Positions 961 to 56,667 of a stretch of DNA of 63,526 bases are shown here, one piece after another (position 1 is the first letter of the stretch; each line of letters opens with the position of its first letter). The translations under genes were made by a program, and so were the position numbers. Under the pieces are notes generated by a model that ran no database searches, was not told the DNA's origin, and saw nothing but the letters and a program-made list of their open reading frames with translations. Source of the DNA: a virus (taxonomy: Duplodnaviria; Caudoviricetes). The stretch covers positions 1 to 63,526 of IMG/VR virus record IMGVR_UViG_3300024182_000007; one strand, 5' to 3'.

Positions 961-3441
961 CTAAACGTGGAGCTTCGGCGGAGGCGGCGGCGGATCGAGA
1001 CACGTTCTCATGTTGAACCACGACGGAGCCATTCCCTTTCTGATCCCCGAGGGGACCACCCATTCTATTTGATCGTCAATACAATAGACCTCACATCTAT
1101 CGTCGGCCGCTCGCATCCCCCTCCCCCTCATCTGCTGCAATTCCTGCATGACCGAATAGAGCATGAACTTCTTATCCTTGTTCCTCTCCTTCGCCAGATG
1201 AGAGGTAGTCACGTCGAAGGGGACTTTCGCTATAATCTGGTATTCGCACTCGGAATTATGTGAGGCAAAACCTTCTGCGACCAGCGTTTTGGTCGTCGTG
1301 CCGGTAGCCATTACATCTTGCTCTCCGATAAACTCTTTGCTTACTACCTTGACGGGTCTCGATCGTAATGAGCCAAAGCTGCCGATGCGGAGTTTTGGCA
1401 AGAGTCTTTCAGGTCGTATCTGACCAAGAAACCGCATGATGTCGCTCCTCCGTGTAATGAGTAGAGATATTCCATCCTTCCGTTGGTCTTGAGTACGCTT
1501 TTTGAAATAGCCACTGAAAGGAAAACCCTTTTCCTTCAGAAGTTCCATGATCTTATAAAGCATTTCATTTTCTGTCTGTGAAAGCCCCAGGAATATATTA
1601 GGTGAGTCACCCCCGCGATTCCATTTATTTACACGTTGTGACAGATACCCCTCTCCATCGAATGCCGATGCGAGGTACCCGGAAGCATAATCGGCATCGG
1701 TCTTCCAAACATCGGCAATCTGGCATAACGAACTGGGAAGAGTGGCGTCTCCTCGCAAATTCTGTGTCTCAACCCACTCAGAAACTCCGTTGCGAAAGAC
1801 GAGCCATTTATGCGCGTGAGACGATATTAAACGTGTGCCGTCTTCTAAACCGATTTGATAGCAAGGTAGGCGGATAAGCGCATTGCCCGTAATCGTTGCC
1901 TCTTGCCATCTTCGACTACGTCGTCCATCTACACGCTCTTCATCGAACGCAGCCAACTTTTGACCTATATGCAAGTCACCGATTTGCTTCCACTGAAGAT
2001 CCGCAGTCAAGACTTTGGTGTTAGGAGAGACGCAGTAAGGGAAGTCCCATCCCGTGGAGAACGACGGGCTCACCAGAACTCTAGGGGGCGCCGATCTCCT
2101 AAATTCCTCCGCCTTAGCGCTCGTCTCCCTTGCGTCGTTATTCAGGATCATCAGCCTCGCGTATTGAGAATGCCTTTGAATGAACGCCGCCCGCTCGTAA
2201 CTCTTCGTCTGAATAATCCCCTTTCTATCCAACCTGTCCTCTATAATCTGATCCACGCGCGCGACCATCACTTTCAGCTCATCCTCGTCCGTCCTCCAGG
2301 TCATCTTCACCGTCGGGATATGGATAAAGGGCATGCGATTCAGCGGGAAGACGCGCGGCCACTCTTTGAATTCGTACTCGCTCTTCGGAACTCCGAGCAA
2401 CTGGAGAGTGTAAGGCCGGACGGTGCCGGAGAGCATGACGATCCGAGGGACGCCAGAGAACAGGTTCGAGCGGACGTATTTCCCCGGCCAGATACACTCG
2501 AACGTGATCCCTTTCTCATCGGCTTCCCAAACCCATTCCCCTTGAGTGAGCGTGGAGATCCACCACAGCCGGTTATCCAGGTCCTTGTCTGTATCTGTAT
2601 CCTCTTCTTGGCCATGCGCCCTCTTAAGCGCCTTTCTGGAGAGGACGGCCCATCTCTTCCACCCGTCCAGCTCCAGCCCCCCTTTGCGGTCAATGGGCAT
2701 CGGCAGCGGCGCCTCCACGTAAGAAATATGAATAGCGACGAAATCCGAAATCTGGTCGAAAATAGCATGGGCTTCGTCGCACACGAGTATCCCCACGTTC
2801 CCCAGACTCCCCTTACTGGCCCTCCGCGAATGCATCCAGAACTGATAATTCGTCACTCCCAGCGGACTCGCCCTGAAAGCCGTCAATGCTTCAGAGTACT
2901 GGCAAAGGGGCGTCCCATATAGATTACAGTCCTCGTCAATCCCCCTGTCGCACGTCCACCACCCTTTCTTGTTTCGCTCGTCTCCGGAATGGCACTTATA
3001 ATTCGCAACCCCGCGCATGTCGGCCATCCCGCACGGTCCAAAATCTTTCCCGTACTGATCTTGTAATCCTTTGGTGGCGGTAAGGACGACAACCCTCTGA
3101 TCAGAGAGTTCCCCGATCATCGGCGGGATGGCGCTCTTTCCCGATCCAGTGCTCTGAGACAGGACGGTTATCGGATGCTTACTATCGAGAACGGCCTGCA
3201 CTCCCTCTATCTGAGTCTTCCTCCAGGTCTCGAATTTAGCCGGAAGGTTGAAGTCTTTCGGAGAAGAGCAGCGGCCCCAATCGGCCGCCTTCGTGCATTC
3301 CCGGCAGCAAGTGCAATTGGCTGACTCTGCCAGGTAAAGGTCCTGAAACGGACAAGTATGAGGAGGGGACTGTTCGTGCGGACAGTTCCTCATCCCCGTC
3401 AGTTTGGAGGCGATCGATTGGGCAATCTCGGCTTTCGTCAT
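961..3441 (-). CDS. SF2 DinG/XPD-like helicase with intein
   Basis: Walker A STGSGKS, DEAH box, SGT motif III, FSTGWDFP motif V, Q..GRGMR motif VI and a four-Cys FeS-like segment. Start at 3441 inferred from the ATGA overlap. Confidence 0.9.
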   Translation of the reverse strand: MTKAEIAQSIASKLTGMRNCPHEQSPPHTCPFQDLYLAESANCTCCRECTKAADWGRCSSPKDFNLPAKFETWRKTQIEGVQAVLDSKHPITVLSQSTGSGKSAIPPMIGELSDQRVVVLTATKGLQDQYGKDFGPCGMADMRGVANYKCHSGDERNKKGWWTCDRGIDEDCNLYGTPLCQYSEALTAFRASPLGVTNYQFWMHSRRASKGSLGNVGILVCDEAHAIFDQISDFVAIHISYVEAPLPMPIDRKGGLELDGWKRWAVLSRKALKRAHGQEEDTDTDKDLDNRLWWISTLTQGEWVWEADEKGITFECIWPGKYVRSNLFSGVPRIVMLSGTVRPYTLQLLGVPKSEYEFKEWPRVFPLNRMPFIHIPTVKMTWRTDEDELKVMVARVDQIIEDRLDRKGIIQTKSYERAAFIQRHSQYARLMILNNDARETSAKAEEFRRSAPPRVLVSPSFSTGWDFPYCVSPNTKVLTADLQWKQIGDLHIGQKLAAFDEERVDGRRSRRWQEATITGNALIRLPCYQIGLEDGTRLISSHAHKWLVFRNGVSEWVETQNLRGDATLPSSLCQIADVWKTDADYASGYLASAFDGEGYLSQRVNKWNRGGDSPNIFLGLSQTENEMLYKIMELLKEKGFPFSGYFKKRTQDQRKDGISLLITRRSDIMRFLGQIRPERLLPKLRIGSFGSLRSRPVKVVSKEFIGEQDVMATGTTTKTLVAEGFASHNSECEYQIIAKVPFDVTTSHLAKERNKDKKFMLYSVMQELQQMRGRGMRAADDRCEVYCIDDQIEWVVPSGIRKGMAPSWFNMRTCLDPPPPPPKLHV
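1255..2034 (-). mobile_element. Intein (260 aa) with LAGLIDADG endonuclease domain
   Basis: Starts CVSPNTKVLTAD, has block B SHAHKW and YLASAFDGEG, ends EGFASHN followed by +1 Ser. Removing it restores DFPY-SECEYQII. Confidence 0.92.
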
Positions 3442-3611
3442 TCCTTCAACCCGTCCGACTTCAAACATCCGATTTTTATATTGCAGGCATCAATAACGTC
3501 TTTAAGATCGGCATAGGTCGTCTCACGGCTGACGCGCGTGTCAGAGAACAGATCTTCGATCGCATTCATTACGGCGTCCACAAGCTTCTGGTGGCGTTCG
3601 GCCTTAGTCAT
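3438..3611 (-). CDS. small hypothetical protein
   Basis: ATGA overlaps with both neighbouring genes. Confidence 0.6.
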   Translation of the reverse strand: MTKAERHQKLVDAVMNAIEDLFSDTRVSRETTYADLKDVIDACNIKIGCLKSDGLKE

Positions 3612-4864
3612 TTCTGAAATCCCCTCTTCACGTAATCCCCAGCCTTCTCCGTCAGTTCCCACCCTCCCCCTTCGCTCCTCTCCATTATCCTCAGCGCCCC
3701 CAACTCCTCTAATGCCCTTTTGGCCGTCCCATCGGAGAACATGCCTCTAGCTGCAACGCGCCCCGCGCTCGTCCGATAGTGCGGCCCGTTCCCGTTCCTC
3801 CCGACCATATCAATCGCTTCCCTCAGCGCGACACTCCGCACCATCGGCATCGAATCAAGCGCCATTTTCTTAATAATCCTCCACGCCTCCCCTCCGATCC
3901 CGCCCTCTACTCCCAGGAATTCCATCGCCCGATAGATCATCCCTAACTCGAGTGTGATGCGAGTGGGCTTCTCCGCGCTAGGGACATCGGTAATCTCCTT
4001 CGAGAACGTATCCCTCAGCACCAGTCCCCTGGCCGTCCCCGCCAGCTGCCCCATCGCTATGATCCCGTCCTTCTCCGCATGGCTGAGTTCCCTCGGCTCT
4101 ATCTTGCTTTTCCAGTCCAATCCAAAACTCTCGAAAAAGCTCTTCACGCTCTCCCTGATCTGAGCGGCCATCTTAGGCGTATTCGCTCTCCCCAGCGCGG
4201 CGAACGCCTCTGCCCACCCGTCCGAATACGGATAACGAAAGAATACGAACCTCTCTCCCATCGCGCTGACCATCGCATGACTCCTATCGACGGCCGGCGT
4301 CACCCCCGTCAGGAATCCGATATGCCCCTTCCACCTCAAACACCTCCCTCCTTCCCCTCCCACGTCCCTCACCCATTCGCCGTCGTAAATCTCCCGGAAC
4401 GCCGCCAGCATCTCCCCCAGATCGTCCTTATGCATGGCTAGGATAGAAGTAAAATCCTTGAATATCAGCGCCCCTCTATCCCCGATCTCCCTCAATATCC
4501 CCCCCTTAGCGGCCTTCTCCTGATCCCCCTTCCCCGTCTGCTTCCAATACTTCTTGGGGACGCCGCTCAATAAAGACGGATGCCCCTTGAGCGTGCTCTT
4601 GACATAGACCCCATCGACGTCCTTCAGCGTCATCAATAGTTCCGTCTTCCCGCAGCTCGACTCTCCGACGAGCATCAGCCACACCGGATCGCCCTGCATC
4701 ATATTGGCCGCGAGACTCCCCATAACCACGTACAGCGGAGATGGATCTGGCAGATGAAGAAAGTCCTGGAATTGGGCGGCCAGCGCATATATGGGCGTCG
4801 ATGAGGAGGCTAAGGGGGAACGCGAAAAGGAAGCTTTACGCGGCATCGTTTGGGCTAGATTCAA
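3608..4864 (-). CDS. MCM-like AAA+ ATPase, probable replicative helicase, with C-terminal winged helix
   Basis: GESSCGKT Walker A, LIFKDF Walker B-like, LREIYDG-like motif (FREIYDG), MGERF arginine finger. Confidence 0.75.
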   Translation of the reverse strand: MNLAQTMPRKASFSRSPLASSSTPIYALAAQFQDFLHLPDPSPLYVVMGSLAANMMQGDPVWLMLVGESSCGKTELLMTLKDVDGVYVKSTLKGHPSLLSGVPKKYWKQTGKGDQEKAAKGGILREIGDRGALIFKDFTSILAMHKDDLGEMLAAFREIYDGEWVRDVGGEGGRCLRWKGHIGFLTGVTPAVDRSHAMVSAMGERFVFFRYPYSDGWAEAFAALGRANTPKMAAQIRESVKSFFESFGLDWKSKIEPRELSHAEKDGIIAMGQLAGTARGLVLRDTFSKEITDVPSAEKPTRITLELGMIYRAMEFLGVEGGIGGEAWRIIKKMALDSMPMVRSVALREAIDMVGRNGNGPHYRTSAGRVAARGMFSDGTAKRALEELGALRIMERSEGGGWELTEKAGDYVKRGFQK

Positions 4865-4947: not shown

Positions 4948-6009
4948 TTAAGCGGCCCTCTTGGGCTTGGGCTCTCCCTTACTCTTGGGAAGGGCTTCGG
5001 CGATCTCGTCCCACTTCCGCAACAAAGTCCCCTCGGTCCCTTCCCCTTGGGAGAACTTCACAAAATACGCTGCAAATGATGCCATCACCGGCGGAGATGC
5101 AGGCCCGCACATGCTCTCGAAGAACCCGATCAGCTCTTTCTTCTGCCGGGGCTCCTTCCCCTTCAGCGCGCCTTTCTTTCTGGCCGCCTGAACGACATGC
5201 TTCTCCTGGACTTTGGGCTTCTCCGCGTTCTTCTTCGCTATGGCTTTTTGCTTAGCACTCATCTTCGGGTTGGCATCCGCCCTTTTAACGGCTTCCTTCG
5301 CTTCCTCCCGAGAGAGCTTTTTGGCGTCCTCGACGACTTCCTCGCGCTTCTCCGGCTCTACCCGCTTGATCGCCGTCAATGCGGCTTGAGTAGTCATCTC
5401 GCCGGAATGAACCTGCTGTTGAATCGACTTCGGCGCCTCGGCCAGCTTCTCGTGCTCGGTGATCGTCGCCGTGCTCACCCCAAAGTAAGCCGCCACCTGC
5501 TTGGTATTCTCGCCACCCTCCCAGCCGTTCTCCTTTCGGGCGTCGGCTATCAGCAGCATGAGATCGATGGGAGTAAAGTTCTTGCGCTGGATGTTCTCGA
5601 TGATAGCGGCGCGTTTCGCCTGCGCGTCATCGTATCGCCTGACAACGCATTCCAGCGTGAACGGCCCCTGCTTCTTCGGATCGTATCTCGACTTGAACTC
5701 GCCGGAATTGATCCTCATCGCGGCGGCCCTTCTGCGATGTCCGGCGATCAGCGAATATTGCCCTTGCTTCTCCTCCCTGACTATCAAGGGAAGCAATTGC
5801 CCCTCAGGCTCCAGTAAGCTCAGGGCAAGTTCGCGTATCGACTTCTCCTCGGCCTCAGGAGATCCCTTGAACTTTCTGACTAACTGCTCTTTCCTCAGCT
5901 TGATCTCATCCGGTAACAGATTAAGGGTCAACCCCAGATCCGGCCTTTCATCCTCAGGCTGATCATGCTGCTCCGGGGACGGGGAATCGCTCGTTTGTCC
6001 GTTCGTCAT
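4948..6009 (-). CDS. parB: ParB/Srx-domain protein with HTH
   Basis: LIAGHRRRAA arginine patch, IIENIQRKNFTP, then HTH (VAAYFGVSTATIT). Confidence 0.85.
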   Translation of the reverse strand: MTNGQTSDSPSPEQHDQPEDERPDLGLTLNLLPDEIKLRKEQLVRKFKGSPEAEEKSIRELALSLLEPEGQLLPLIVREEKQGQYSLIAGHRRRAAAMRINSGEFKSRYDPKKQGPFTLECVVRRYDDAQAKRAAIIENIQRKNFTPIDLMLLIADARKENGWEGGENTKQVAAYFGVSTATITEHEKLAEAPKSIQQQVHSGEMTTQAALTAIKRVEPEKREEVVEDAKKLSREEAKEAVKRADANPKMSAKQKAIAKKNAEKPKVQEKHVVQAARKKGALKGKEPRQKKELIGFFESMCGPASPPVMASFAAYFVKFSQGEGTEGTLLRKWDEIAEALPKSKGEPKPKRAA

Positions 6010-6334
6010 AAATCCTCTCTACCTGCTCCAGCGTCAGCCCGAAAGCGTCCGCTAGTTTTCTGGCCATCTTCAAGCTCGGCCGCGTCTTCAACGTCAACAG
6101 CCTGCTCAGATGGGATTCGTTCGTCTTCATTCTCGCGGCGGTCGCGCGAATGTTGATGTTCGGGAACTCCGGGTTCTTTCTCCCCCGCGTGCGCTTGTCG
6201 TCGGCGTCCCGGATGACGATCAGATTGGATTCGGGACGGCTTTCGACAAGCGGCGGCGCAGGAGGAGATTGCTGTTTAACCAGCCTAGCGGGGCCTTTGT
6301 TCTTAGCGGATTTCGTGGAGCGCTTGCTCATCAC
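5963..6334 (-). CDS. XRE-family HTH transcriptional regulator
   Basis: C-terminal HTH (IRATAARMKTNESHLSRLL..RPSLKMARKLADAFG). Preceded by TTGACA-16-TATCAT, probably leaderless. Confidence 0.75.
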   Translation of the reverse strand: MMSKRSTKSAKNKGPARLVKQQSPPAPPLVESRPESNLIVIRDADDKRTRGRKNPEFPNINIRATAARMKTNESHLSRLLTLKTRPSLKMARKLADAFGLTLEQVERIYDERTNERFPVPGAA

Positions 6335-6392
6335 CAGACCATGATACTCCATCATATTCCTTTGTCAAGCGCTTTCTTCTCGCTTATCACGG

Positions 6393-6879: not shown

Positions 6880-7170
6880 TTATTTGGTCGAATACGGAGG
6901 TCTGGGGACGGGCTTCCCCGTATGCAGATCGACCTTCTCTCCTCTCAGCGGGTGAAGCTCCTGCCTCTCCTTTCGGATCTTCTTGATGAAGTCCTCGACG
7001 GCGGCCACGATCATCCCATTCATCGAGCACCATTCGATCTCCGACTCTTGTTTGAGCTTCTCGTGAAGGGGGACGGGAAGCTTGACGAGGATAGCCTGAC
7101 GCGGGTAGTAAAAATCGATGACCCAACCTGCGCGTTTGCGACGTCTCATTTCTTTGGCGGATAGTGACAT
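6880..7170 (-). CDS. Arc-like ribbon-helix-helix DNA-binding protein
   Basis: ILVKLPVPLHEKLKQESEIEWCSMNGMIVAAVEDFI pattern; TTGACA at 7202-7207 upstream. Confidence 0.75.
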   Translation of the reverse strand: MSLSAKEMRRRKRAGWVIDFYYPRQAILVKLPVPLHEKLKQESEIEWCSMNGMIVAAVEDFIKKIRKERQELHPLRGEKVDLHTGKPVPRPPYSTK

Positions 7171-7352
7171 ATACTAACGTATATCATGAACGGATACCGG
7201 CTGTCAATGGACATAACTTCTGCACGCACGTCTGTCTCACATCTTCTCTTGATGAATTACCCTTAGACTCTAGACTTAAATATAAGAGGGAGAGAGATTG
7301 AGACTATGGTCTGTGCAAAAGTAATGGACGGGCTTTCCCAAAGCGTGCTATC

Positions 7353-7919
7353 ATGCTGAGCATGCGTAAGATGCGTAATAGAATCATGCAGATGTACGGA
7401 ATTCACAAGACGCAATGGGATGCGATGGACGCGGTCGATCGTAAACTCTATTTGGATGAGAAGGCAGCCCGCAAAGAGGATAGAGCGAGGAGAAGAAAGC
7501 CTCCGAAGTTCGTTTCGGGGATGAAAATCGGCATGCTGACTCTTCTCATGAGGGCAGGAATCAGAGGATATTTTAGAGTGCCGTTCCATAACGGACGGTG
7601 GAAAGTGAAGTGCGATTGCGGAAAGGAGATCGTCGTCACCTATAACCAGTTGCAGAGAGGGAAGTATTCGTGCGGATGCACGCCCAAACCGAGGAAAGCG
7701 CCGGAACTCACGCGCCCGCCTAAAGAACTGCCTCAACGGGTATATGGGCGACTGATAGTGCATGAATATCACATGAACTTCGGCTGGCTTTGCGAGTGCT
7801 CCGACTGCGGGGACTTCTCGTGGGTCCGATACTCCAAGTTTCTGGAGGGGCATGGGAAGAGACCGTGCCTGCTGACGTGCCTCGATCGCAAACTGAAGCA
7901 ATCGAAGCGTGGGGGGTAG
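7353..7919 (+). CDS. protein with two C-x-C-x-C-G modules of the type found at the N-terminus of HNH/AP2 endonucleases
   Basis: WKVKCDCGKE...SCGC and YGRLIV...WLCECSDCG; no HNH catalytic motif seen. Confidence 0.6.
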   Translation: MLSMRKMRNRIMQMYGIHKTQWDAMDAVDRKLYLDEKAARKEDRARRRKPPKFVSGMKIGMLTLLMRAGIRGYFRVPFHNGRWKVKCDCGKEIVVTYNQLQRGKYSCGCTPKPRKAPELTRPPKELPQRVYGRLIVHEYHMNFGWLCECSDCGDFSWVRYSKFLEGHGKRPCLLTCLDRKLKQSKRGG

Positions 7920-7969
7920 GGGGGATATTCTATACTTATATATAAGTACTATATATATATATATAAGTA

Positions 7970-8903
7970 TTAAGTATTAGACGTATGCGTGAGCGTTATC
8001 CCCAGATGATCGCATGCCGGATCGCTCAAATCTAAGGCCGTCTTCAGATATCTTTCCGTCGTCTGAATCGATGAGTGCCCGAGGGCGGCGGATATCTGCT
8101 CCAGCCGCGCTCCCCCCTTTCTAGAAAGTTGGGCGAACGTGCGTCTGAGGTCGTGCGGCGCCAGCTTAAAGCCTCGTTCAGACGCGCGTTGACGCACGAT
8201 CTCCCAAATAGCGTTCGAGGATAGAGAGCGGTGGATAGATCCTCTCTCCAAGCTCCTCAGCACGCGAGAGTCATTGCGCTCCCATTCGTCTATATGCAAT
8301 AGTGCGGACCATTCTCTGAGGATGGACTCAGCCCAGAGAGGGACGGGGATAGTGCGGATGCGCTCCCCCTTCCCCCTTAGATCTAAGACGACGCGCCGCC
8401 CGTCCCTTATCTTGAAGCTGGCTCCAGATCAATTGTGCGGCCTCTTCTCGTCTCATGCCGCACCCTAACAATAGCGCGATCGCCGACCGATCTCTCGCTT
8501 CATATAGCGGATCGGCACCCTCTTTCGTCTCCAGCAGCCGCGCGCATTCTTCTTTAGAGAGCCAGTTACCGGCGCGCGCCCCTTTCTGAATCGATCCCTT
8601 GATGCGGAGGATGGATAGCGCCGTCTCGGCTGATATCGCGTGATGATCGGCGGCCGTCTGCGCCAGCCTCTTGATGGCCGCGAGGGATTGGTTCCGGGAG
8701 GAGATCGACTTGCCGGAGGAGATCAGATGCCCTATATAGGACTCGACTGTTAACCGATCAAGGGATAAATAGTGCGCCCAGGCGAGAAAAGAGCGCAGCC
8801 GGGAGGAATAAGCGCGGCGGGATTGAGGGGAGGGGAGGAGCTGGACGGCGGCGGAGATCAGATGCTCACCTATAGAGGGAGACGGTAATAGTGCGGCGCT
8901 CAT
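7970..8903 (-). pseudogene. Xer/integrase-like tyrosine recombinase interrupted by a +1 frameshift near 8414
   Basis: N-terminal part has RDRSAIALLLGCGMRREE. The +1 frame continues with DLRGKGERIRTIP, PHDLRRT and LGHSSIQTTERY, so all R-K-H-R-H-Y catalytic residues are present. Confidence 0.85.
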
Positions 8904-9268
8904 TCGCCCCCCGATCTAAATAAATAGTGCTTATAGAATCCAGCAGCTCCATAAGCTCCGCCGATCTGCACCGGCTGTGTAGGCTTTTCAGCCAGTTTTT
9001 GCGCCACCATCCGCGCTAAAATCCTGTCCCTCCTCGGACTCTCCGGAATCATCCAGACGAGTTTACACATGCTCTCGGGCGTAGCCGTTTCCAGCCGGTA
9101 GAGCGCATACCACTTCTTTTTATTCGGCGCGGCGAGCTGATTCCCCAGATAGCCGAAATCGACCCTGAACTCCCTCTCTCTATAGGCGACGGCGTGCCCA
9201 TATAGCCCGTGATTGACGCCCGATCGGATGCGCACGGGGATGGGAGGATCTATCTTTATCTCGCTCAT
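8900..9268 (-). CDS. hypothetical early protein
   Basis: ORF track; ATGA overlap with the recombinase start. Confidence 0.65.
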   Translation of the reverse strand: MSEIKIDPPIPVRIRSGVNHGLYGHAVAYREREFRVDFGYLGNQLAAPNKKKWYALYRLETATPESMCKLVWMIPESPRRDRILARMVAQKLAEKPTQPVQIGGAYGAAGFYKHYLFRSGGE

Positions 9269-9493
9269 TCGACCTCTTGCGTCACCATCTCAAAGTCGAA
9301 GCCGTCTGTGCTCCCAGGTCCTCTCAGCGTCACAAACGGACCATTGTGCGCCCGTGCGTCGATTCGTGACCCACCATTGTCCATGCTCAAAATCGGTCTG
9401 TAATTCTCCGATATGGCCCAGTCCTCGATCAAAAGCCGCCGATCTCACGCGGCGTCCCATAGATAACGTGTTCTGCTCAGTTTTCAGTTTCAT
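9265..9493 (-). CDS. small hypothetical protein (FEHGQWW motif), probable +1 frameshift near 9322
   Basis: The +1 frame gives GPGSTDGFDFEMVTQEVE* and ends in an ATGA overlap with the next gene. Confidence 0.6.
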
Positions 9494-9846
9494 TCGACTT
9501 CCCCTCTCAGAATGGCCGCCGTCAACAGCGCAATCTGATCCTCCGTTAACGTATTACTGTTCAATAGTGCGGTGAAATGCTCTCTTCTAGCGCACTGCGG
9601 GGTAAGCTGTCCGAGGTTCTGCGTCCGCGCGGGCAACTCGACCGTCGGGATTTTAGCGGACGGCGTTCTCTCCGGGCGCTTTACCGGCTGAACCAGTTTC
9701 CATGCATCCGGCCAGCGTACGACTTCATAAAGCGATATCTCGTTCGGCCTCCCCCCCACTCCCCCTTTTCCGAGTAGATAGATGCCCGTCCCGACGGCAC
9801 GCGGCATCTCCCGTTCTATCGGCGCGCGCGGCCTATAACGGTTCAT
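9490..9846 (-). CDS. hypothetical early protein
   Basis: ORF track; ATGA overlaps. Confidence 0.7.
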   Translation of the reverse strand: MNRYRPRAPIEREMPRAVGTGIYLLGKGGVGGRPNEISLYEVVRWPDAWKLVQPVKRPERTPSAKIPTVELPARTQNLGQLTPQCARREHFTALLNSNTLTEDQIALLTAAILRGEVE

Positions 9847-10271
9847 AGTGCGCCCGCCGTCAGCCTACACGCCACTAATAGTGCGATCTGCTCATCCGTC
9901 AGAGTCCCCGATCTCATCAACTCCGTGAAATCGTCCTCTTTCATCTGCCGCCGCAGCCGCCGCATAGTGCCGTCGATGCCGTTCTGAATGAACTCCCGCG
10001 CTTTATCCGGCGCGCTCAAACGGCCATTAACGTATTTCTCAGCGATCTCAACGGCCTCCTTCCGCGTCTTCCCCGTCCTGCATACGACCGGCGTACCGCA
10101 TAGGATATGAGAGACGACCCACCCGTGACCGCTGAACCCTTCCAATTCGCCTGTCTTATGCAGGCAGAACCCTTCCACTCCCATAAACGCGATTGGATAG
10201 CAGGGGAGGACGGGCTTTTTCTCGTTCGATCTAAGCCAGATAGTGCTCTTTTTCCGCCGTTCGTTCGTCAT
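9843..10271 (-). CDS. hypothetical early protein
   Basis: ORF track; shares a C-terminal motif with 9490-9846. Confidence 0.7.
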   Translation of the reverse strand: MTNERRKKSTIWLRSNEKKPVLPCYPIAFMGVEGFCLHKTGELEGFSGHGWVVSHILCGTPVVCRTGKTRKEAVEIAEKYVNGRLSAPDKAREFIQNGIDGTMRRLRRQMKEDDFTELMRSGTLTDEQIALLVACRLTAGAL

Positions 10272-10280
10272 AGTGCGGCC

Positions 10281-10634
10281 TCATCCTTTCGTCTCAATAG
10301 TGCGTATCACCTTATCGTTATCGCCCAACAACCAGCTACTAGACTGAGAGTTGCGCCTGAGCATGAGCATGAAAGAGGGCTTCCATCCGCCTGTAATCGA
10401 AACCGTCCCGCGTTTTCGCTCGTGTTCGCTTCCATCGGCACCGCAAAAAGCCACTTCGATCCTCGATTGCGACTGAAAGTATAGAATGAACTGCGGCGCC
10501 AGATTACCGCCGTCTACTTTCCCATGCTGGTTGCGCTTCCGATTCAATTCGTAGTAGAGCCGCTCTCCCATCGCGCGGAAAGCGGCTTTTTCCAGTGGCG
10601 TCCATCCGTTTGTCATTTGATCGAAAGCGTTCAT
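10281..10634 (-). CDS. hypothetical early protein
   Basis: ORF track; ATGA overlap with the VWA gene. Confidence 0.7.
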   Translation of the reverse strand: MNAFDQMTNGWTPLEKAAFRAMGERLYYELNRKRNQHGKVDGGNLAPQFILYFQSQSRIEVAFCGADGSEHERKRGTVSITGGWKPSFMLMLRRNSQSSSWLLGDNDKVIRTIETKG

Positions 10635-11863
10635 TCACTCATCCTCACAATTTCCCCGAACTCTACCCCTCTGTTAGCCCATTCTGGCGCTACCCACAAC
10701 ACCGGATAATCCGGCGCCGACGGCCGATCTCCACACTCTAGATCTGTCAGATAGATGAGGGCTTTAGGCTGTATTTCCTTCTCCTCAACCCAGTCAAAAA
10801 CCGGCTGGAAGTTCGTTCCGCCGCCGCCTTTCGCCTTGAGTATCAACTCATCCCCTGGCAGAAACTCATCTGTCTTTTGTACGCGCGCGTCGCAATAGAC
10901 CACGTGTATTTTCTCCGGCTTCGCTTCATCGGCTATAGCCTGAATCTCCGTATTGAAAGAAGCCAGCATAGGACCGTCGATACTCCCACTTGTGTCTACA
11001 GCTAGGACCAGCTCTCCCGTATTCTCCTTGACCATACCTGGCAAATATAAACCGGTTGCCACGTATCGCCTATTCGGATGGCTCCAGCTGTAATCGGACG
11101 GAATCGTAGCGGCTACGAACTCTCGGAGGATCTGTTTCCAATCTTGCGGAGACTGGCGCCCGTTCCGCATCTGTCTATCTGCCTCACCGGGCATCTTTCC
11201 AGCCTTACGCGCAGCCATAGCAGCTTGCTCGGCCGCTATCTTCCAATCTTGCTCAGTCGGAATGTCCCCAGAACCGTCTCCAGGATCGTTTTCCTGCCCC
11301 TTTTCCTGCCCGTGCTGGGGTTTTGGACCGCCGGACGACCCTTTACCGCCTGAATCCTTAGAATCGGCCTTAGGGGCATCCTCAAATGTGCCAGTAGGGC
11401 AGGGCTTCCCTTTACCCTGCCCCTGCCCCTGCCCTTTGCCTTGTTTCGGCTGCGGATTCCCTTGAGACTTCCGTTTGGCGTATATCTGCTCTGCTGACAT
11501 CCCCTTATACTGGGCGTCGATAAGGGCTCCTTGCGGAAGAGTCAAACCAGCATCTACTAATAACTGGTTAATGGCGTAATCGCAGGCTACGTTCCACTCG
11601 TATGCGTCTCTGGTTCCGCGTCTGAACACGTGCAGTAAGGCGCAGTGTTCTACCTCATGAGCGTACACTCCTATCAGCTCAGGATCGGAGAGGGTTTCGA
11701 CGAATGGACCATGATAGATAAGATCACGCCCGTTGGTGCACATCGTGGGAGGATTGATAGTATCGTCTCTCGTGGCGTTAAGTCTCATGGCCAACGTCCC
11801 AAAGAACGGATGTTCTAGGAGAAGACGTGTACGCGCTCGCCTCATTCTCAATTCAGGCGTCAT
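10631..11863 (-). CDS. metallopeptidase-like (DUF2201-type) + VWA domain protein
   Basis: HEVEH zinc motif, WNVACDYAIN, low-complexity linker, VDTSGS MIDAS, GGGGTNF, YLTD. Confidence 0.9.
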   Translation of the reverse strand: MTPELRMRRARTRLLLEHPFFGTLAMRLNATRDDTINPPTMCTNGRDLIYHGPFVETLSDPELIGVYAHEVEHCALLHVFRRGTRDAYEWNVACDYAINQLLVDAGLTLPQGALIDAQYKGMSAEQIYAKRKSQGNPQPKQGKGQGQGQGKGKPCPTGTFEDAPKADSKDSGGKGSSGGPKPQHGQEKGQENDPGDGSGDIPTEQDWKIAAEQAAMAARKAGKMPGEADRQMRNGRQSPQDWKQILREFVAATIPSDYSWSHPNRRYVATGLYLPGMVKENTGELVLAVDTSGSIDGPMLASFNTEIQAIADEAKPEKIHVVYCDARVQKTDEFLPGDELILKAKGGGGTNFQPVFDWVEEKEIQPKALIYLTDLECGDRPSAPDYPVLWVAPEWANRGVEFGEIVRMSE

Positions 11864-12042
11864 CAGTACACCGCCAGTTCCGCGCCTAAGAGCGCAGATT
11901 CAACCGCCGCTTCCGTCAGATGTGTTTTGACGTGTACGAATTGCTCGAAGCCTATCGCCATCTGTAACGCGAGCGCTCTTTCGCCCGCGTCATTCACGCT
12001 ATCGGCTTCCAATTCCGTTACAGTAATTACCAGGTAAGTCAT
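11863..12042 (-). CDS. 59-aa hypothetical protein
   Basis: Hand translation MTYLVITVTELEADSV...LAVY; fills the gap with one-base overlaps. Confidence 0.55.
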   Translation of the reverse strand: MTYLVITVTELEADSVNDAGERALALQMAIGFEQFVHVKTHLTEAAVESALLGAELAVY

Positions 12043-14689: not shown

Positions 14690-15654
14690 AATAAATGCAT
14701 ACCACAAGTCAATAATGTGTCTAATAGCCGGTTATACGTTGATTCTTAACACTGGTTAAGATGGTAAGGTTAACTATAGTTAAGATGAGGGGTAGGGGGG
14801 GAGAACTGATGAAGGGCGCCGGTAGAGGATATTCAGGTATTAAGATATTAAGACCTTAAGGTCCGAATATCCGAAACTTGACCTATACGTATAGCGCTAG
14901 TGCCTAGTGCCTGTCAAGTGCCGATCCTCCCTCATAACGCCTATTGAATGCCTCTAGCGTGTGCTCTATCGCCTGACTTGCGATAATACCTCTTATCACC
15001 AGCATCTCATTGATTGCACTATATATACTCGCTGGTACTAGTCGTCATTCCGCAAGCGGAATGACTCCCAGTCCAGCTCGCCGAGGGGCTAGTCCCAGAC
15101 GCCAGAGCGACCGTAGATCCTAGGGCCTTCGATTGTCCGGGGGCGGGCAAGCTGGACCTGCTCCTTGACCCGGAATGTATAAAACTTTTCAGTTTTCAGC
15201 CTGTGGAAATCCTGTGGAAAACGTGGTCTTCTTTCCCCCTTCTTCTGAATTCTCAGGCCGAGATATTTAATATGTCATTTTAATCTGGTCATGGTCTTTT
15301 TTCCGCTGTTTTCGGACATTCTAGATGCTGGTTCTAGTACCTTCTTTTTTCGCCGTTCGTTCGCCCTTATATGTGTCTCATGTCTGTGTAAACTCGGAGG
15401 GCGCAAGCGCCCTCCTTCGTTTCCACGACATTCGACCGCGCGCCCCTCTCCTTCTCCCGCGTTTGCGTACGCTCGTGCGGGAGAGTGCGCGTCGTTCGAT
15501 GGCTTGCGATTGGCGCGAGGCCGCTTGCGGCCTGCGTCGATGAGCAAACATCGAACACATATGCAGTGGCAAGACGAGAGGGGGCGCCGAAAACGGCCGA
15601 TCGTATGCAGCCGATCGTATGCAGCCGGTTAATGTGTGCTAGACTTCACTTGAT
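14690..15654. other. ~1-kb non-coding divergence region; candidate origin or genome terminus
   Basis: No convincing ORF. TTAAG repeats, hairpin GTCATTCCGC-AA-GCGGAATGAC, two DnaA-box-like 9-mers at 15202-15221, 14-bp tandem repeat at 15596-15627. Confidence 0.55.
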
Positions 15655-16035: not shown

Positions 16036-18528
16036 ATGTCCCCTACACTTCGTTTAATCCTCCGCGTAGCGTCTACGTGGCGATATCTTCTTTTCATATT
16101 CATCGTCTGTCCGCATACTTCAATGTATGGCCAGCCGACGTCGGATACGGCGCGCCATATCATCTGGGGGCCTTCTCTCCCCGCGTCATGCCGACCTTCG
16201 ACCGGCGACGTCTTTTTTAAGACTTCCGCCACGGCCGGCCCCTATTACTGCTCCGCGCCGAATACGTGGCTTCCCATCGGAACTGGAGTCGGCGGGTCGG
16301 TGACGAGCGTCGGCTCGGGCTGTGGGATGTCCGGCGGGCCGATAACGACGAGCGGGACTCTCAAGGCGTCCGAACTGGTGCAGATCGTCACTGGAACTCC
16401 CTACAACGTATTGTCGTCGGACTGCGGCAAACTCTTATATCTGAGCAACGCGACAGCTTTAGCAGTATCCATCCCTCAAGCAGGCGGGACATTCCCTAAC
16501 GGCTGGTACGTCGATATCCAGAATCCCGGACCTGGGACGATGACCATAACCCCTACTGTCAGCACGATCGACGGCGCCGCTAATCTGGTTGTCGGCGTCA
16601 ATCAGGGAGTCCGCATAGTCTCAGATGGAGTCAATTACGAGACTCAGAGAGGGGGCGCCGGGTCGTCCGCCGCAAACTCCAGATGCACGTTCACCGCCGC
16701 CTCCACCTGCTCCATCACCGGCCTGACGGGAGTGGCCAATCAAGCCGTCGTCTCCTGCTACGACAATTCCGGGACCTTGACGGAGATCATTCCCAACGAT
16801 TTCGGCGGGACGACCGCCGACACTTTAGTAGTGAATTTCAGCGCGCCGCAGACGGGATATTGCAACGCGAGCACGGGAGTGGGGGCGACGGGCGCAACGG
16901 GCGCCGCAGGGCCTGCGGGTTCTCCCGCCGCGCCAGTCAATAGCGTCCAGATCGACAATGCGGGCGCATTCGGCCCGGCGGCCGTCAACTCCAGCGTCGG
17001 CGTGTTCTGGGATACTGGCTATCCCTCGGTTAACTTCCGCGCTGTAAGCCAACTGTGGACCCTCGAAACCCCAACCGGAGGATTGACGGCCGCCCTGGCA
17101 GGCGCAGGCGCGGGCAATGTCCCTAACGGGGATAGTCTGTATGCGGTCGTCTGCCGCACTACCGTAGGGTTGAGCGACCCGGCAAAGGCTGGCGTCACCG
17201 TGGTCGATCACACTACAAATGGCAAGGTCACCTTGACTCTGCCAACTTGCGACACCGGATCGAGTCAGGGCAAGCGGATTTACCGTACCAAGATCGCCAC
17301 GCCGACAATCTATTACATCCTTGCCAATGTGGCGGTAGGCGCGACAACCTACACCGATAACACAGCCGACTCTGGCCTCGGAGCGCAGTCCTTATTTGAC
17401 TGGTCGCTCAGCGTTCCGATCAACACGAGCTCGGCGATCGTGGAAAACAGCACGGGGATCGATGTCGCGCAGCCTACGAATCTCGGATTCTACATTCCCC
17501 CGGAAAGCGCGCTCATCATGGGCGGAACGGGATTCACTCCTCCCCCTGGATCGGGAGGCGCAATGGCATTGGCTCCCCATACGCCGGGGATCATCGATGG
17601 AGCGGTCGTCGGGGCGTCGGGCGTCAGCGGGAATTGCGCCAAATGGGACTCCACCTCCGGATTGGCGGACAGCGGCGGACCTTGCGGTGGGGCTTCTCCC
17701 GGTGGCGCTGACCTCACCCTTCAGTACCGGATCAACTCTACGACATTCGGAGGGATGAGCGGAACCAGTTGGGATGACACGGCAAGAACGTTTTTGTTGG
17801 TCGATGGGAGCAGTAATCCAATATTTGGATTCAGTGCTGATCCGGCTAATATTGCGCCATTCATCTCTCTAGCTTTTAATCCGAATGGAATTGGTCCCGC
17901 TTCAGTGTCGTCTGGTGATGGCACTGCTGTAAATGATATCACTCTTATTTCTTACAAGGGTGGCGCTACCACGGATGTGGCTGGCAATGGCGGTAATGGT
18001 GGCAATTTGAATTTAATCAGTGGTGGAGGCGCGAATGGAGGAGTTAGCGGGGGTAGCGGCGGCACATTTCAGTTACAAAGCGGTCCAGGTGGTAACGCCT
18101 CTGCTGATGGGGTATCCGCTGGCAATGGCGGGGGGTTTACTATAGCCGCAAGCAATGGCGGACAGGCGACGGGCGCAAATGCTTTCTCTGGAAATGGAGG
18201 AAATGTCAGCATATCGGGTGGTGTTGGCGGAAACGCGGCAGCCTCAATGGGAACCGGGGGAAATGGTGGAAATGTTTATCTGACACCCGGTGATCCTGGA
18301 TCGGGTACGCTCGCGCCGGGGCTCAATGGCAAGGTAATTGTCAATGGAGCCTTTGCCAGCGAACTTGGCTCCTGTACGGCTGCCACTCTTTCCACGATAC
18401 TCACCGCCAATACTGACGTCTGTATGTGTACCGACTGCCAACCGACCAGCGGCTCAGATGATACCTGCACCGGATCGGGAGGGATATGGCTCGCCTACAA
18501 AACGGCTTCTGCGGTGGTGTGCCGATGA
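16036..18528 (+). CDS. Gly/Thr-rich tail-fibre/adhesin-like protein with probable signal peptide
   Basis: Hydrophobic N-terminus, GSVTSV fibre motif, collagen-like GATGATGAAGPAG, GGNGG repeats, 18 Cys in the mature part. Confidence 0.75.
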   Translation: MSPTLRLILRVASTWRYLLFIFIVCPHTSMYGQPTSDTARHIIWGPSLPASCRPSTGDVFFKTSATAGPYYCSAPNTWLPIGTGVGGSVTSVGSGCGMSGGPITTSGTLKASELVQIVTGTPYNVLSSDCGKLLYLSNATALAVSIPQAGGTFPNGWYVDIQNPGPGTMTITPTVSTIDGAANLVVGVNQGVRIVSDGVNYETQRGGAGSSAANSRCTFTAASTCSITGLTGVANQAVVSCYDNSGTLTEIIPNDFGGTTADTLVVNFSAPQTGYCNASTGVGATGATGAAGPAGSPAAPVNSVQIDNAGAFGPAAVNSSVGVFWDTGYPSVNFRAVSQLWTLETPTGGLTAALAGAGAGNVPNGDSLYAVVCRTTVGLSDPAKAGVTVVDHTTNGKVTLTLPTCDTGSSQGKRIYRTKIATPTIYYILANVAVGATTYTDNTADSGLGAQSLFDWSLSVPINTSSAIVENSTGIDVAQPTNLGFYIPPESALIMGGTGFTPPPGSGGAMALAPHTPGIIDGAVVGASGVSGNCAKWDSTSGLADSGGPCGGASPGGADLTLQYRINSTTFGGMSGTSWDDTARTFLLVDGSSNPIFGFSADPANIAPFISLAFNPNGIGPASVSSGDGTAVNDITLISYKGGATTDVAGNGGNGGNLNLISGGGANGGVSGGSGGTFQLQSGPGGNASADGVSAGNGGGFTIAASNGGQATGANAFSGNGGNVSISGGVGGNAAASMGTGGNGGNVYLTPGDPGSGTLAPGLNGKVIVNGAFASELGSCTAATLSTILTANTDVCMCTDCQPTSGSDDTCTGSGGIWLAYKTASAVVCR

Positions 18529-19049
18529 GACTACTACTGGCTTTGCTACTACCGTTCGTCCTGTGCGCCCAGCAGTCCACACTTCACCGCAATGCCGCAA
18601 ATCCCGGCGCGGTCCCCCAATGGATCAAATGCACCGTTACTAATAACTCGACAAATCTAGTCGTGAGTGGGACCGGCTGCACGGCGGCGACCATCGCCAA
18701 AGCGGGCGGACTTACCCAGACAATTCCGCTCTTTCCATTACTCGCTAATGGCTATGTTCATAACTATGTGCTCAAGACGAGCACGGCATTCGCGGGCACA
18801 ACGTCGCTACTCGGCGGGCTGGGCACCACTGGGACACCTAATCTCTTCCTCATCAGCGCTGTCACCGGATATAACATGAAGACGGCGGTAAGCGCCACGA
18901 ATCTCAGTACAGCCTTACCGTTAGTGGGAGGTAGCGATACGGCGAGCGCCAGTAATGTGGTCCTTCAATTGACAAGCACTATCGATAACCTGACCGCTAT
19001 TTCTGTTGGCGCAATCGATATCTGGGTGCTCTGGTCTGTTAGGCCATAA
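18525..19049 (+). CDS. secreted-type beta-sandwich fibre/decoration-like protein
   Basis: MRLLLALLLPFVLCA-QQ signal peptide; ATGA overlap. Confidence 0.7.
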   Translation: MRLLLALLLPFVLCAQQSTLHRNAANPGAVPQWIKCTVTNNSTNLVVSGTGCTAATIAKAGGLTQTIPLFPLLANGYVHNYVLKTSTAFAGTTSLLGGLGTTGTPNLFLISAVTGYNMKTAVSATNLSTALPLVGGSDTASASNVVLQLTSTIDNLTAISVGAIDIWVLWSVRP

Positions 19050-54470: not shown

Positions 54471-55931
54471 TCATTCCTTCACCCCCCACCTCTCCCCGAC
54501 CTCGCAATCGCTCTCGATCCGCGTCCTCCATAAATCCTCCCCCGTATCCTTGTCGATCATCACCCGATCGAATACGGGAGTGAGGGCTTCGGCGACTCCC
54601 TCCGCGTATCTCCCGTCAACTTCCACCATCAGCTGATCGTGAATAGTGAGTAAGGGCCACGCCCAGATCCCCTGCCTCTCAAACTCCAGCAGAAGCTCCT
54701 CCGCCTCTCCCATAATCAATTTCAACTGACCGGCGGCGGCCGACGTCACGGGTAAGTTCTGCGCCTGCCTCAATCCGGCCTGCCTGATCCAGGAATGCGT
54801 ACTCTCCACTTCCGGGATTCTTCTCATCCGTCCGAACGGGTCCCAGGACTTCTTATATCTCCGCGCTCTATAATGCGTGAGATCGAAATACTCTCTGACT
54901 TCCGGCCGTGTATTCAGCCATTCCTCGATAAACCATTTGCACCAGTCCTCAGTCAGCCACTTAGGGACTTCTACGTGATTCGAGCCGAAGTCCATAACCA
55001 ACTGAAGATACAGTCCTTTTTCAGTGGTCCCGTTCTGTATCCCGAAATTCACTCTCTTAGCCGCCATCCGATGCTTATACTTATCCGGCTTCACGTCTAA
55101 CGGCACGCCCAGCGCCTTATGACAGGTATCGTCATGAATATCCCCGCCGTTCTCATAAACCTCGATCATCGACTTGCATCTGGATAAGTGGGCCAACGCG
55201 CGCAGCTCAATTTGTGACAGATCGATAGAGACGATCTTAGTCCCCGGAGAAGCTATGAAAGCTGCTCTAACTAACGCGCCTTCCTCAGTCCTCACCGGGA
55301 TGTTCTGCAAGTTTGGGTTTCTACTAGCGATCCTCCCTGTAGCGGCTCTGGTCGTCGGCAGTTCCGTATGCAGCCGCCACGTATCGTCTACGTGCTTCAA
55401 CTCACATACAGGGCAGCATTCTCCCCGAGGATGGAACTTAGCCAACTGAGGAAGACTGACGACATAAGTCGAGACTAACTTCGCATATTCCCTATAGCTG
55501 AGGATCTTCGCCACTATCGGATGATCCTCTCTGAGAGTCTCTAATTGCCTCTTCCCCGTCGATATTCGTGACCCTCCCTTAGTGGTCTTCAGCTTCTTCC
55601 CGGAGCCCACCTTCAGGACGTTGAAGAGTAAGTCGGCGATCTGCTCCGCCGAACTCGCATTGATCGACGCATCCCCCTCCTCGTCCTCTATCTGAGACGA
55701 CCTCCCCACGAACTGATCCAACGCCCAATAAGGAATATAAGAAGAGATGTCTTTCTCCAGCTCCTTCATAGTCGAGGAGAAGCGGGAGGATAACTTGTTC
55801 AGATACGGAATGTCGATGGCAAAACCGAGGCGCTCCATCCTTCTTATCGATGGAATTGGTAACAAGTCGAGCTTTCTGACGTTCTCCGCGTCCGGACGGC
55901 CGGGAAGTTCTATACCTCCATATAGGCTCAC
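54471..55931 (-). CDS. polA: family A DNA polymerase, polymerase domain only
   Basis: ATGRIAS..PNLQNIP, DLSQIELR (motif A), R..AKRVNFG (motif B), TIHDQL (motif C). Confidence 0.95.
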   Translation of the reverse strand: MSLYGGIELPGRPDAENVRKLDLLPIPSIRRMERLGFAIDIPYLNKLSSRFSSTMKELEKDISSYIPYWALDQFVGRSSQIEDEEGDASINASSAEQIADLLFNVLKVGSGKKLKTTKGGSRISTGKRQLETLREDHPIVAKILSYREYAKLVSTYVVSLPQLAKFHPRGECCPVCELKHVDDTWRLHTELPTTRAATGRIASRNPNLQNIPVRTEEGALVRAAFIASPGTKIVSIDLSQIELRALAHLSRCKSMIEVYENGGDIHDDTCHKALGVPLDVKPDKYKHRMAAKRVNFGIQNGTTEKGLYLQLVMDFGSNHVEVPKWLTEDWCKWFIEEWLNTRPEVREYFDLTHYRARRYKKSWDPFGRMRRIPEVESTHSWIRQAGLRQAQNLPVTSAAAGQLKLIMGEAEELLLEFERQGIWAWPLLTIHDQLMVEVDGRYAEGVAEALTPVFDRVMIDKDTGEDLWRTRIESDCEVGERWGVKE

Positions 55932-56464: not shown

Positions 56465-56667
56465 CGCGTACTCTCTTCCTTCTCTCTCTTCAAATCCCAC
56501 TGATGAGCGCAATACCCCGCATGCGCGTACCCCACAATCACGCCTCCTCCATCCAGCACCGGCCTCACTTCCTCGTCGTTCGGATGCAATCTATCCTTGC
56601 AGTGGGCGCAGAATCCCAGCGCCTCAAAGCTCGTGATCCTCATCTTAAGCGTCCGCGTCTTCGTCAT
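56461..56667 (-). CDS. small CxxC protein
   Basis: CAHC...HAGYC. Confidence 0.55.
   Translation of the reverse strand: MTKTRTLKMRITSFEALGFCAHCKDRLHPNDEEVRPVLDGGGVIVGYAHAGYCAHQWDLKREKEESTR

Follow-up and report, generated by a model that had tools for sequence, protein, structure and literature searches.

A polar array of short GCAC(A/T)A sites on the integrase operon of uncultured soil podophages, possibly of the stoperator type

Introduction

Cluster A mycobacteriophages carry stoperators, which are described in two reports (PMC9283540, PMC6550527) as asymmetric sites of 13-14 bp that occur 20-30 times per genome, are oriented with transcription and are bound by a monomer without cooperativity. 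Here we analyze an array of shorter sites, with the core GCAC(A/T)A on the coding strand, on the integrase (int) operon of a tailed phage (Duplodnaviria; Caudoviricetes) represented by the IMG/VR record IMGVR_UViG_3300024182_000007. The window is this whole virus record of 63,526 bp, which was labelled G000 in the family comparison. We tentatively read the array as a set of polar operator or stoperator-like sites whose reader was not identified. To our knowledge, a stoperator-type mechanism has so far been characterized only in Cluster A mycobacteriophages.

Short sequence words serve several other functions in bacteria and phages. Chi and KOPS (FtsK-orienting polar sequences) are short, asymmetric, frame-independent and co-oriented words. 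Chromosomal parS sites often lie inside genes, and box A of the P1 parS site is an asymmetric heptamer. At the RNA level, T4 RegB cuts GGAG in early mRNAs, and MazF-type interferases recognize sites of 5-7 nt that are enriched in particular mRNAs.

Results

Clustering of the word in the window

The heptamer ATAGTGC on the plus strand corresponds to GCACTAT on the minus strand, which is the coding strand at this locus; all positions given below are those of the plus strand. The window contains 16 exact copies compared to 3.90 ± 1.85 expected, with a maximum of 9 in the shuffled sequences, and none of 100 shuffles reached 16. Twelve of the 16 copies lie within 8299..10303 (8299, 8349, 8769, 8888, 8924, 9564, 9845, 9878, 9964, 10240, 10270, and 10297), every one of them on the plus strand, and the remaining four are located at 3776 and 7755 on the plus strand and at 15016 and 18976 on the minus strand. 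Nine of the array copies extend to CGCACTAT. An earlier note on this DNA had described the twelve co-oriented copies, the nine extended ones and the four outliers, and these counts and the positions of the outliers were reproduced. In a k-mer enrichment check, which the same note had proposed, ATAGTGC was the top-ranked clustered 7-mer of the genome, with 12 of its 14 plus-strand copies within 2005 bp, and its density was local rather than genome-wide. At the level of 8-mers, nine of the ten genome copies of ATAGTGCG and all seven copies of AATAGTGC are situated in the array. Since the local genes are encoded on the minus strand, the word on the coding strand reads (C)GCACTAT(T), and in G000 the flanks beyond it carry no information.

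Eleven of the twelve array copies lie wholly within an open reading frame (ORF), and the twelfth, at 10270, spans a start codon. As the note had stated, the intragenic copies occupy all three frames: five are in frame 0 (GCA-CTA, Ala-Leu), four in frame 1 (xGC-ACT-ATx), and two in frame 2 (CAC-TAT), the copy at 8349 being assigned to the int frame after the frameshift described below. Two copies overlap start codons as GCACTATG, namely those at 10270 and 9845, which belong to ORFs of 142 and 118 amino acids (aa), respectively. The Leu codon CTA is used in all five frame-0 copies; in 16 confident genes it accounts for 61 of 762 Leu codons (8%). In a synonymous-codon shuffle, 1.35 ± 0.96 wholly intragenic copies were expected (maximum 6) compared to 10 observed, a number reached in none of 2000 shuffles, and a shuffle of codon order gave an expectation of 0.17 (maximum 2). 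The enrichment therefore stays under a codon-preserving null, which the earlier note had named as a check of its claim. Contigs from two other soil-metagenome studies match parts of the region 7000-11000 and differ from it at 2 single bases in all; among the sequencing runs listed for this DNA, none was an RNA data set. These results confirmed that the enrichment is real.

Conservation of the array in related phages

In IMG/VR, 23 loci with a terminase 49-66% identical to that of G000 were found, and ten records (G001-G010) were examined. G008 is a fragment identical to G005 and was left out of the array counts by genome. G009 and G010 are fragments of 53-58% completeness in which no int match was obtained and in which copies of the word are only dispersed. 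A DNA search with positions 7000-12000 gave no match among cultured phages, and a terminase query gave none in a genome-contig collection. The closest cultured relatives according to the terminase are Tunturiibacter phages (Tunturi_1) with 32% identity, and Tunturi_1 has neither int nor the array. A search with the MoxR protein revealed no viral relatives, and one with the DUF2201 protein a single distant viral locus, which was not used. When the collection was scanned for ATAGTGC-N20-50-ATAGTGC, the inspected loci with many copies turned out to be fibre repeats of the Asn-Ser-Ala type or low-GC tandem repeats, and no relative was among them.

In G001-G005, the exact heptamer occurs at chance level. 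De novo k-mer scans of the DNA beside the int homologs, however, revealed CGCACAA in G002 (9 of 9 copies within 2 kb), TTGTGCC in G003 (10 of 15) and TTGTGC in G006 (19 of 22). The common core GCAC(A/T)A forms one cluster in each of the eight genomes G000-G007. The cluster comprises 15 of the 21 copies on its strand within 2.5 kb in G000, 18 of 24 within 5.0 kb in G001, 21 of 26 within 3.1 kb in G002, 25 of 36 within 4.8 kb in G003, 7 of 10 within 3.4 kb in G004, 12 of 27 within 2.4 kb in G005, 35 of 41 within 7.5 kb in G006, and 14 of 18 within 2.2 kb in G007. In none of the eight genomes was the observed cluster reached by any of 5000 random placements; the spans were picked after seeing the data, and the placement test scans all positions for a window of the respective length. 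Inside the arrays, 147 copies are on the array strand and 3 on the opposite one, and the array strand is always the one that codes for int. Conservation in related phages, which the earlier note had put forward as a further check, was thus found in seven relatives from one uncultured podophage family (terminase identity 50-66%), with GCAC(A/T)A arrays at the same place.

When 148 sites were pooled, including 8 duplicates from G008, information was confined to about -2 to +6 around the core, i.e., to about eight positions, and outside about -2 to +7 no sequence is conserved. The base following the core is genome-specific, for example T in G000 and C in G006. The layout of the arrays also varies: 29 copies are spread over 4.7 kb of small ORFs in G006, 13 copies are packed into about 450 bp in G007, and in G001 four copies at a spacing of 11-12 bp are followed by dispersed ones. 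Strand calls based on the longest ORF are unreliable in the GC-rich relatives and were not used.

The ORFs around and upstream of int show no homology between the genomes, and even in the closer trio of G001, G006, and G007 alignment at the DNA level is limited to int and two short stretches, which means that the word is kept while the genes beneath it are replaced. Judged from this comparison, the array appears to survive a wholesale replacement of the genes that carry it. The codon shuffles, the use of a rare codon and the family-wide conservation in non-homologous genes support the view that selection acts on the DNA or RNA and not on the protein. Of the DNA-level selection claimed before, the part that stands is therefore selection below the protein level, with DNA and RNA both fitting the data. 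It is also supported that the sites form a polar array, and the best explanation of the whole is a family-conserved, functional array of short asymmetric sites with the core GCAC(A/T)A.

Spacing of the sites and their relation to predicted promoters

Neither helical nor codon phasing was detected in 80 spacings of ≤ 120 bp (Rayleigh p 0.18-0.79). Unphased spacings fit separate, non-cooperative sites, as they are reported for stoperators (PMC6550527, PMC9283540). There was no link to starts led by a Shine-Dalgarno sequence, with 28 of 141 copies within 40 nt of such a start compared to 28.1 ± 4.7 expected. The hairpin or loop context of the copies in RNA was inconsistent, their mean unpaired probability being 0.54 compared to 0.43 ± 0.23 for the background.

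Some copies stand next to predicted promoter elements. The composite TTGACA-N1-GCACWA occurs three times among the 276 TTGAC(A/T) motifs of the eight genomes, compared to 0.13 expected by our own arithmetic: at 14917 (minus strand) and 18969 (plus strand) in G000 and at 31562 (plus strand) in G002. The first of these is part of a composite site in a divergent regulatory region; in this site (14883..14917, minus strand), TTGACA (14917-14912), a g, GCACTA (14910-14905), a further g, a second GCACTA (14903-14898), the near-copy GCGCTAT and the palindrome CTATACGTATAG follow each other. Its layout resembles that of a promoter whose spacer holds two tandem copies. In G002, TATGCT follows 18 nt after the -35 region of the composite, which is located immediately ahead of the genes for a helix-turn-helix (HTH) protein and ParB. 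Two of the three composites thus resemble promoters by their predicted elements. A block of four tandem copies in G001 stops 4 nt short of TTGACA-N18-TACTAT, a predicted strong promoter, and 14 more copies are present downstream of it. In G007, an array of 13 copies begins at TTGACA-N17-GCACTA.

The copies at 15016 and 18976, which the earlier note had listed as reverse, are sense-oriented sites of oppositely transcribed DNA, and the same is true for the tandem pair of the composite at 14883-14917, which the note does not list. The copy at 15016..15022 (plus strand) is found in a divergent intergenic region, ahead of rightward genes.

The palindrome CTATACGTATAG of the divergent region is a perfect one of 12 bp (14894-14883) that adjoins the tandem GCACTA and is flanked by the 7-bp inverted repeat ACTTGAC/GTCAAGT. 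A second regulator that binds as a dimer may use it as its operator.

Discussion

A possible polar operator array on the integrase operon

The dispersed and unphased placement of the sites, irrespective of frame and position, together with their strict co-orientation suggests a process that moves along DNA or RNA unidirectionally, and the copies that abut promoters or lie upstream of them favour a DNA-binding factor. Our preferred reading, to which we give a probability of about 0.4, is that the integrase operon carries an array of polar sites that act as operators or in the manner of stoperators. A sequence-specific DNA-binding factor would bind each copy as a separate, non-cooperative unit. 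At copies that abut the -35 region (TTGACA-N-GCACWA) or directly precede a promoter, it would control initiation as at an operator, and at the many copies within the transcription unit it would form a roadblock to elongation that depends on their orientation. As with the stoperators of Cluster A mycobacteriophages, the small accessory genes and int would be kept silent or timed. We infer both the nature of the reader, a DNA-binding protein, and its influence on transcription from the arrangement of the sites. Since it is neither clearly ParB nor clearly Int, the reader may be a host protein or an unrecognized phage protein.

The earlier note had proposed an array of polar protein-binding sites and had offered four options for it: a parS-like centromere for the orphan ParB, stoperator-like repressor sites, Chi/KOPS-like signals and accessory sites of the recombinase. 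The polar array as such is supported. Among the options, the first is contradicted by the relatives, Chi/KOPS-like signals are not supported, recombinase sites are at best weakly supported, and stoperator-like repressor sites fit best, though only by analogy. Judged by the two stoperator reports, the array shares with the sites of L5, Bxb1, and TipsytheTRex the asymmetric, multi-copy sites whose orientation follows transcription (147 versus 3 here), the lack of phasing and probably of cooperativity, and a consensus that varies between related phages. Some copies may also lie in promoters, which are predicted ones here, and the rest inside transcription units, as is the case for stoperators. 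The array differs in that 12-35 copies are concentrated in 2-7.5 kb around int, compared to 20-30 across the genome, and in that most copies are intragenic rather than located in short intergenic gaps. A further difference is that the phage studied here is a podophage whose host probably belongs to the Acidobacteriota. The consensus of the L5 stoperator presumably has a TTGACA-like half beside a CCAC-like one, which would resemble the TTGACA-N-GCAC composite.

Several observations weigh against a stoperator-like array. The core of 6-8 bp is short compared to the 13-14 bp of stoperators, and the sites are limited to 2-7.5 kb and mostly intragenic instead of being spread over the genome. The composite at 18969 does not resemble a promoter, as no convincing -10 element follows it, and at the start of the G000 array, which lies in mid-operon at the end of a 117-aa ORF, no recognizable promoter was found. 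Outside the array, G000 shows a sense bias of 9 versus 2, but with ranks 254 and 20 among 3120 6-mers this bias is unexceptional, so that the counts do not show orientation to follow transcription across the genome. Pfam and PHROG scans of the 47 distinct ORFs of G000 yielded no further candidate for the reader, and the two-domain monomeric repressor of Cluster A, which combines an HTH and a stoperator domain, had no recognizable homolog in these family scans. An Atlas look-up of a conserved 194-aa protein of the late operon was uninformative. The uniform sense orientation fits a signal at the RNA level equally well, and all relatives are uncultured.

If a polar operator or roadblock array is true, silencing of the stoperator type would reach beyond actinobacteriophages. 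It would also operate in uncultured podophages from soil, which probably infect Acidobacteriota, and would there use a far shorter site in a layout restricted to one operon. If the reader is instead a host factor or an RNA-level enzyme, the phage would tag a fast-evolving accessory block for joint control without conserving its genes. In either case, density and polarity of GCAC(A/T)A offer a simple way to search members of this family for the regulatory unit and their int module, and the word supplies concrete oligonucleotides for a pull-down of the reader once a host is cultured.

A possible new cis signal or signal in RNA

It is also possible, with less confidence than we place in a stoperator-like array, that the word represents a new kind of cis signal. 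It would be a one-way word that marks the hypervariable accessory/integrase operon of temperate or plasmid-like phages, with a conserved host machine or an unrecognized phage factor as its reader in place of ParB, Int or a classical repressor.

A signal at the RNA level appears unlikely, although it fits the polarity equally well. In this case, (C)GCAC(A/U)A on the early mRNA would be the cleavage site of an endoribonuclease, the site of an RNA-binding protein or the seed match of a small RNA, and the int/accessory operon as a whole would thereby be shut down or processed. The strict sense polarity, the placement free of frame and position, with neither codon or helical phasing nor a tie to ribosome-binding starts, and the length of 6-8 nt with unconserved flanks all agree with such a signal. 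However, the tandem copies of G001 lie upstream of a -35 region and some copies of G000 and G002 in promoter spacers, and hence outside the transcripts of these promoters, so that an RNA signal fits the promoter copies less well, even if read-through from upstream is possible. In addition, the RNA context shows no consistent hairpin or loop, no match to Rfam was obtained, and no candidate nuclease or small RNA was found.

ParB and the maintenance of a plasmid-prophage

Quite unlikely, in our view, is a role of the array in the maintenance of a plasmid-prophage, be it as a dispersed centromere for ParB or another centromere-binding protein, as iterons for replication control or as titration sites. 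Several features are in favour of such a function. A protein with ParB_N and HTH_ParB domains is encoded at 4948-6009 (minus strand), its gene overlapping that of an HTH_3 (XRE-type) protein (5963-6355, minus strand), and the array is located 0-3 kb upstream of this gene pair in G000 and G002-G005 (2.3 kb in G000). Moreover, int is followed by an AT-rich palindromic tract at 7925-7977, and in G004 iteron-like tandem runs of 7- and 8-mers are present upstream of the HTH-ParB genes. These runs are situated in AT-rich non-coding DNA at 53.9-54.3 kb and consist of about six tandem GGACTGT heptamers and about nine tandem GGAAGTCR octamers, which look like iterons or a centromere.

However, the module formed by HTH_3, ParB, a 418-aa protein and a helicase is restricted to the subfamily of G000 and G002-G005. 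A search for ParB_N gave matches in G000 and G002, a sub-threshold one in G007 that is 12 kb away from the array, and none in G001 and G006, where a homolog of the G000 ParB was likewise not found. Arrays are nevertheless present in all three genomes, with 18 copies in G001, 14 in G007 and 35 in G006, the largest of the family. ParB is therefore not the common reader of the word, which contradicts the parS option. The sites do not correspond to parS in structure either, as the core is asymmetric and the flanks contain no inverted partner, in contrast to the palindromic parS site of about 16 bp. Compared with ParB-parS systems, including boxes A and B of P1, the likeness lies in the ParB_N and HTH_ParB protein encoded downstream, in sites placed inside genes and in a short asymmetric word like box A of P1, and the difference lies in up to 35 dispersed copies and in arrays that persist without a ParB_N domain. 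Asymmetric and unphased sites of 6-8 bp that are spread over up to 7.5 kb also speak against a maintenance locus, a centromere needs no uniform polarity of dispersed sites, and in G000 no ParA was recognized, the 418-aa neighbour being without a family match. Replication iterons, finally, are tandem, helically phased repeats of 17-22 bp that are accompanied by an AT-rich element and an initiator gene; of these properties, the AT-rich tract at 7925-7977 is present, whereas the core is only 6-8 bp long and unphased.

Int and recombinase sites

The int gene of G000 (7970..8903, minus strand) encodes a Xer-like tyrosine recombinase and contains five exact copies of the word and one GCACAA variant (8433..8438), which codes for Ala-Gln of the conserved segment EAAQL. 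Int possesses a SAM-like core-binding domain (PF02899) and a catalytic domain (PF00589). In G000, int is read in two frames owing to an apparent +1 frameshift at about 8411-8420 (CAGCTTCAAG), which is not a homopolymer and is not covered by the matching contigs from the two other soil studies. In two relatives, the coding sequence breaks off after about residue 199 and resumes behind an interruption of about 235 nt in G002 and about 1.1 kb in G005. Both halves of int are open and conserved in G000, G002, and G005, and the interruptions had no match to an Rfam intron. The insert of G005 carries a 9-bp sequence repeated 27 times in tandem.

The word could be a half-site or accessory site of this Int or of its N-terminal fragment and serve autoregulation, a recombination complex or the exchange of ORFans in the manner of integrons, but we rate this as improbable as a maintenance function. 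In its favour, Int is the sole non-structural protein common to both subfamilies, every strong array overlaps int, with 3-10 copies inside the gene, the gene content upstream of int is hypervariable like that of a cassette array, and each of the three interrupted int genes retains an open frame for the first 191-230 aa at the N-terminus. The reasons why Int is doubtful as the reader are of several kinds. The arm and accessory sites of tyrosine recombinases such as lambda Int and TnpI of Tn4430 are likewise direct repeats of a short word beside a recombinase gene. In such systems, however, the recombinase has an extra domain for arm binding, and the sites flank a core whose arms are inverted, all of it within a few hundred base pairs; neither such a domain nor such a core was found here, and the word is spread over 2-7.5 kb and within int itself. 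The lambda arm-type consensus presumably ends in CACTAT, like the word. No inverted pair of words with a spacer of 6-8 bp recurs at a syntenic place, and the flanks show no attC-like or core-like structure. G004 retains 7 clustered copies upstream of its HTH-ParB genes although it lacks any tyrosine recombinase (no match to PF00589), and the frameshift in G000 and the interruptions in G002 and G005 also argue against Int. Furthermore, recombination between direct repeats inside int would delete the gene. As for integron cassettes, the neighbouring small genes are similarly co-oriented and hypervariable, but attC sites mark the ends of cassettes and are imperfect palindromes of 57-141 bp with a folded single-stranded form, whereas the copies of the word have no conserved flanks and no consistent fold and are not tied to ORF boundaries.

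The distribution of Int homologs in bacteria points in the same direction. The family is abundant and present in multiple copies in metagenome-assembled genomes (MAGs) of Acidobacteriota (Bryobacterales, Solibacter, Terriglobia), with 51-62% identity to the phage protein. At 80 loci with such homologs from Acidobacteriota and others, the word is found at background density, with 0.31 and 0.35 copies per kb on the two strands, and forms no arrays. Within these MAGs, five pairs of Int copies from the same genome were compared. The repeated unit has a length of about 0.94-1.0 kb, comprising the int ORF and about 60-130 bp upstream of it, with 83-89% identity. A 52% identical copy of Int is carried by a 55-kb plasmid of Tunturiibacter empetritectus.

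Polar signals of the host and absence of function

It is very improbable that the word is the polar signal of a translocase, for instance a Chi-like protection against a nuclease of the RecBCD/AddAB type, a KOPS-like signal or a packaging signal. It is short, asymmetric, frame-independent and co-oriented like Chi and KOPS, but it forms one local cluster in one orientation instead of being spread over the genome, and the array is at a distance of 6-20 kb or more from the terminase genes. In two Acidobacteriota genomes, CGCACTAT was not over-represented compared to the reversed control, with 56+61 versus 51+52 copies (117 versus 103) in one and 39+32 versus 45+31 (71 versus 76) in the other, a result that is suggestive only, as the true host may be a different one. 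In 0.8 Mb of Acidobacteriota DNA, the 7-mers ranked at the 10th-70th percentile.

That the cluster lacks a function and is a by-product of protein repeats, duplication or composition is close to refuted: the copies at 9564 and 9878 do code for the same peptide, QIALL, in two neighbouring ORFs, and one or two copies in int fall into conserved peptide segments (RIRTIP, EAAQL), but the codon shuffles, the rare CTA codon, the use of three frames, the restriction of longer repeats in the array region to two pairs of 20-23 nt and the independent arrays in non-homologous genes of seven relatives speak against it.

Further features of the locus and the genome

The minus-strand genes of the region are arranged in the order MoxR-type ATPase, DUF3150, DUF2201/VWA, five small ORFs and the tyrosine recombinase, followed later by HTH_3 and ParB. 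The first of the small ORFs encodes a 117-aa protein (phrog_8217; 10281..10634, minus strand), and the first copy of the array is located 16 nt before its stop codon. The 142-aa ORFan (9843..10271, minus strand) contains four internal copies, and the copy at 10270 supplies its last bases as the ATG. Among 5.8 billion proteins, no relative of the 142-aa protein other than itself was found. The start codon of the 118-aa ORFan (9490..9846, minus strand) lies inside a copy, and its one internal copy codes for QIALL. The 67-aa ORFan (9290..9493, minus strand) has the GCACAA variant alone, which corresponds to TTGTGC on the plus strand (9344..9349) and belongs to the repeat families D12 and D18. The 122-aa ORFan (8900..9268, minus strand) overlaps the start of int (ATGA) and contains one copy near its 3′ end. 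Beyond the array, a thirteenth exact copy on the same strand is found about 210 bp downstream of the int reading frame (7755..7761, minus strand), and an isolated exact copy in sense orientation is situated in the gene of the 418-aa protein (3776..3782, minus strand). The second composite site of G000, TTGACA-a-GCACTAT, lies inside a plus-strand gene (18969..18982, plus strand). Rfam gave 0 matches in the window and in the loci of four relatives, and no tRNA was found.

The tract at 7925-7977, directly downstream of int, is AT-rich and largely palindromic, with TATATATA runs and overlapping inverted repeats of 13-20 nt. It is a candidate for an attP core, a terminator or an unwinding element.

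Outside the array region, the family-A DNA polymerase is split into two ORFs of 486 aa each (56645-58105 and 54471-55931), between which a 194-aa ORF of no known family is located. A DEAD/ResIII helicase of 835 aa (961-3468) carries a LAGLIDADG_3 domain at residues 594-684, and the tblastn matches of the relatives skip residues of about 478-713, which possibly represent an intein or a homing-endonuclease insert. Arrays of other short words, each within 3 kb, occur elsewhere in the relatives: GGTTCACT about 20 times at about 20.9 kb in G001, GACCCCGA about 17 times at about 12.3 kb in G003, and GGTCGCGG about 35 times at about 57.3 kb in G004. In G000, two other 8-mers are clustered in fibre-like genes, GCAATGGC with 5 of 7 copies at about 17560-18000 and ATCACCGG with 5 of 14 copies at about 20210, and both probably reflect protein repeats.

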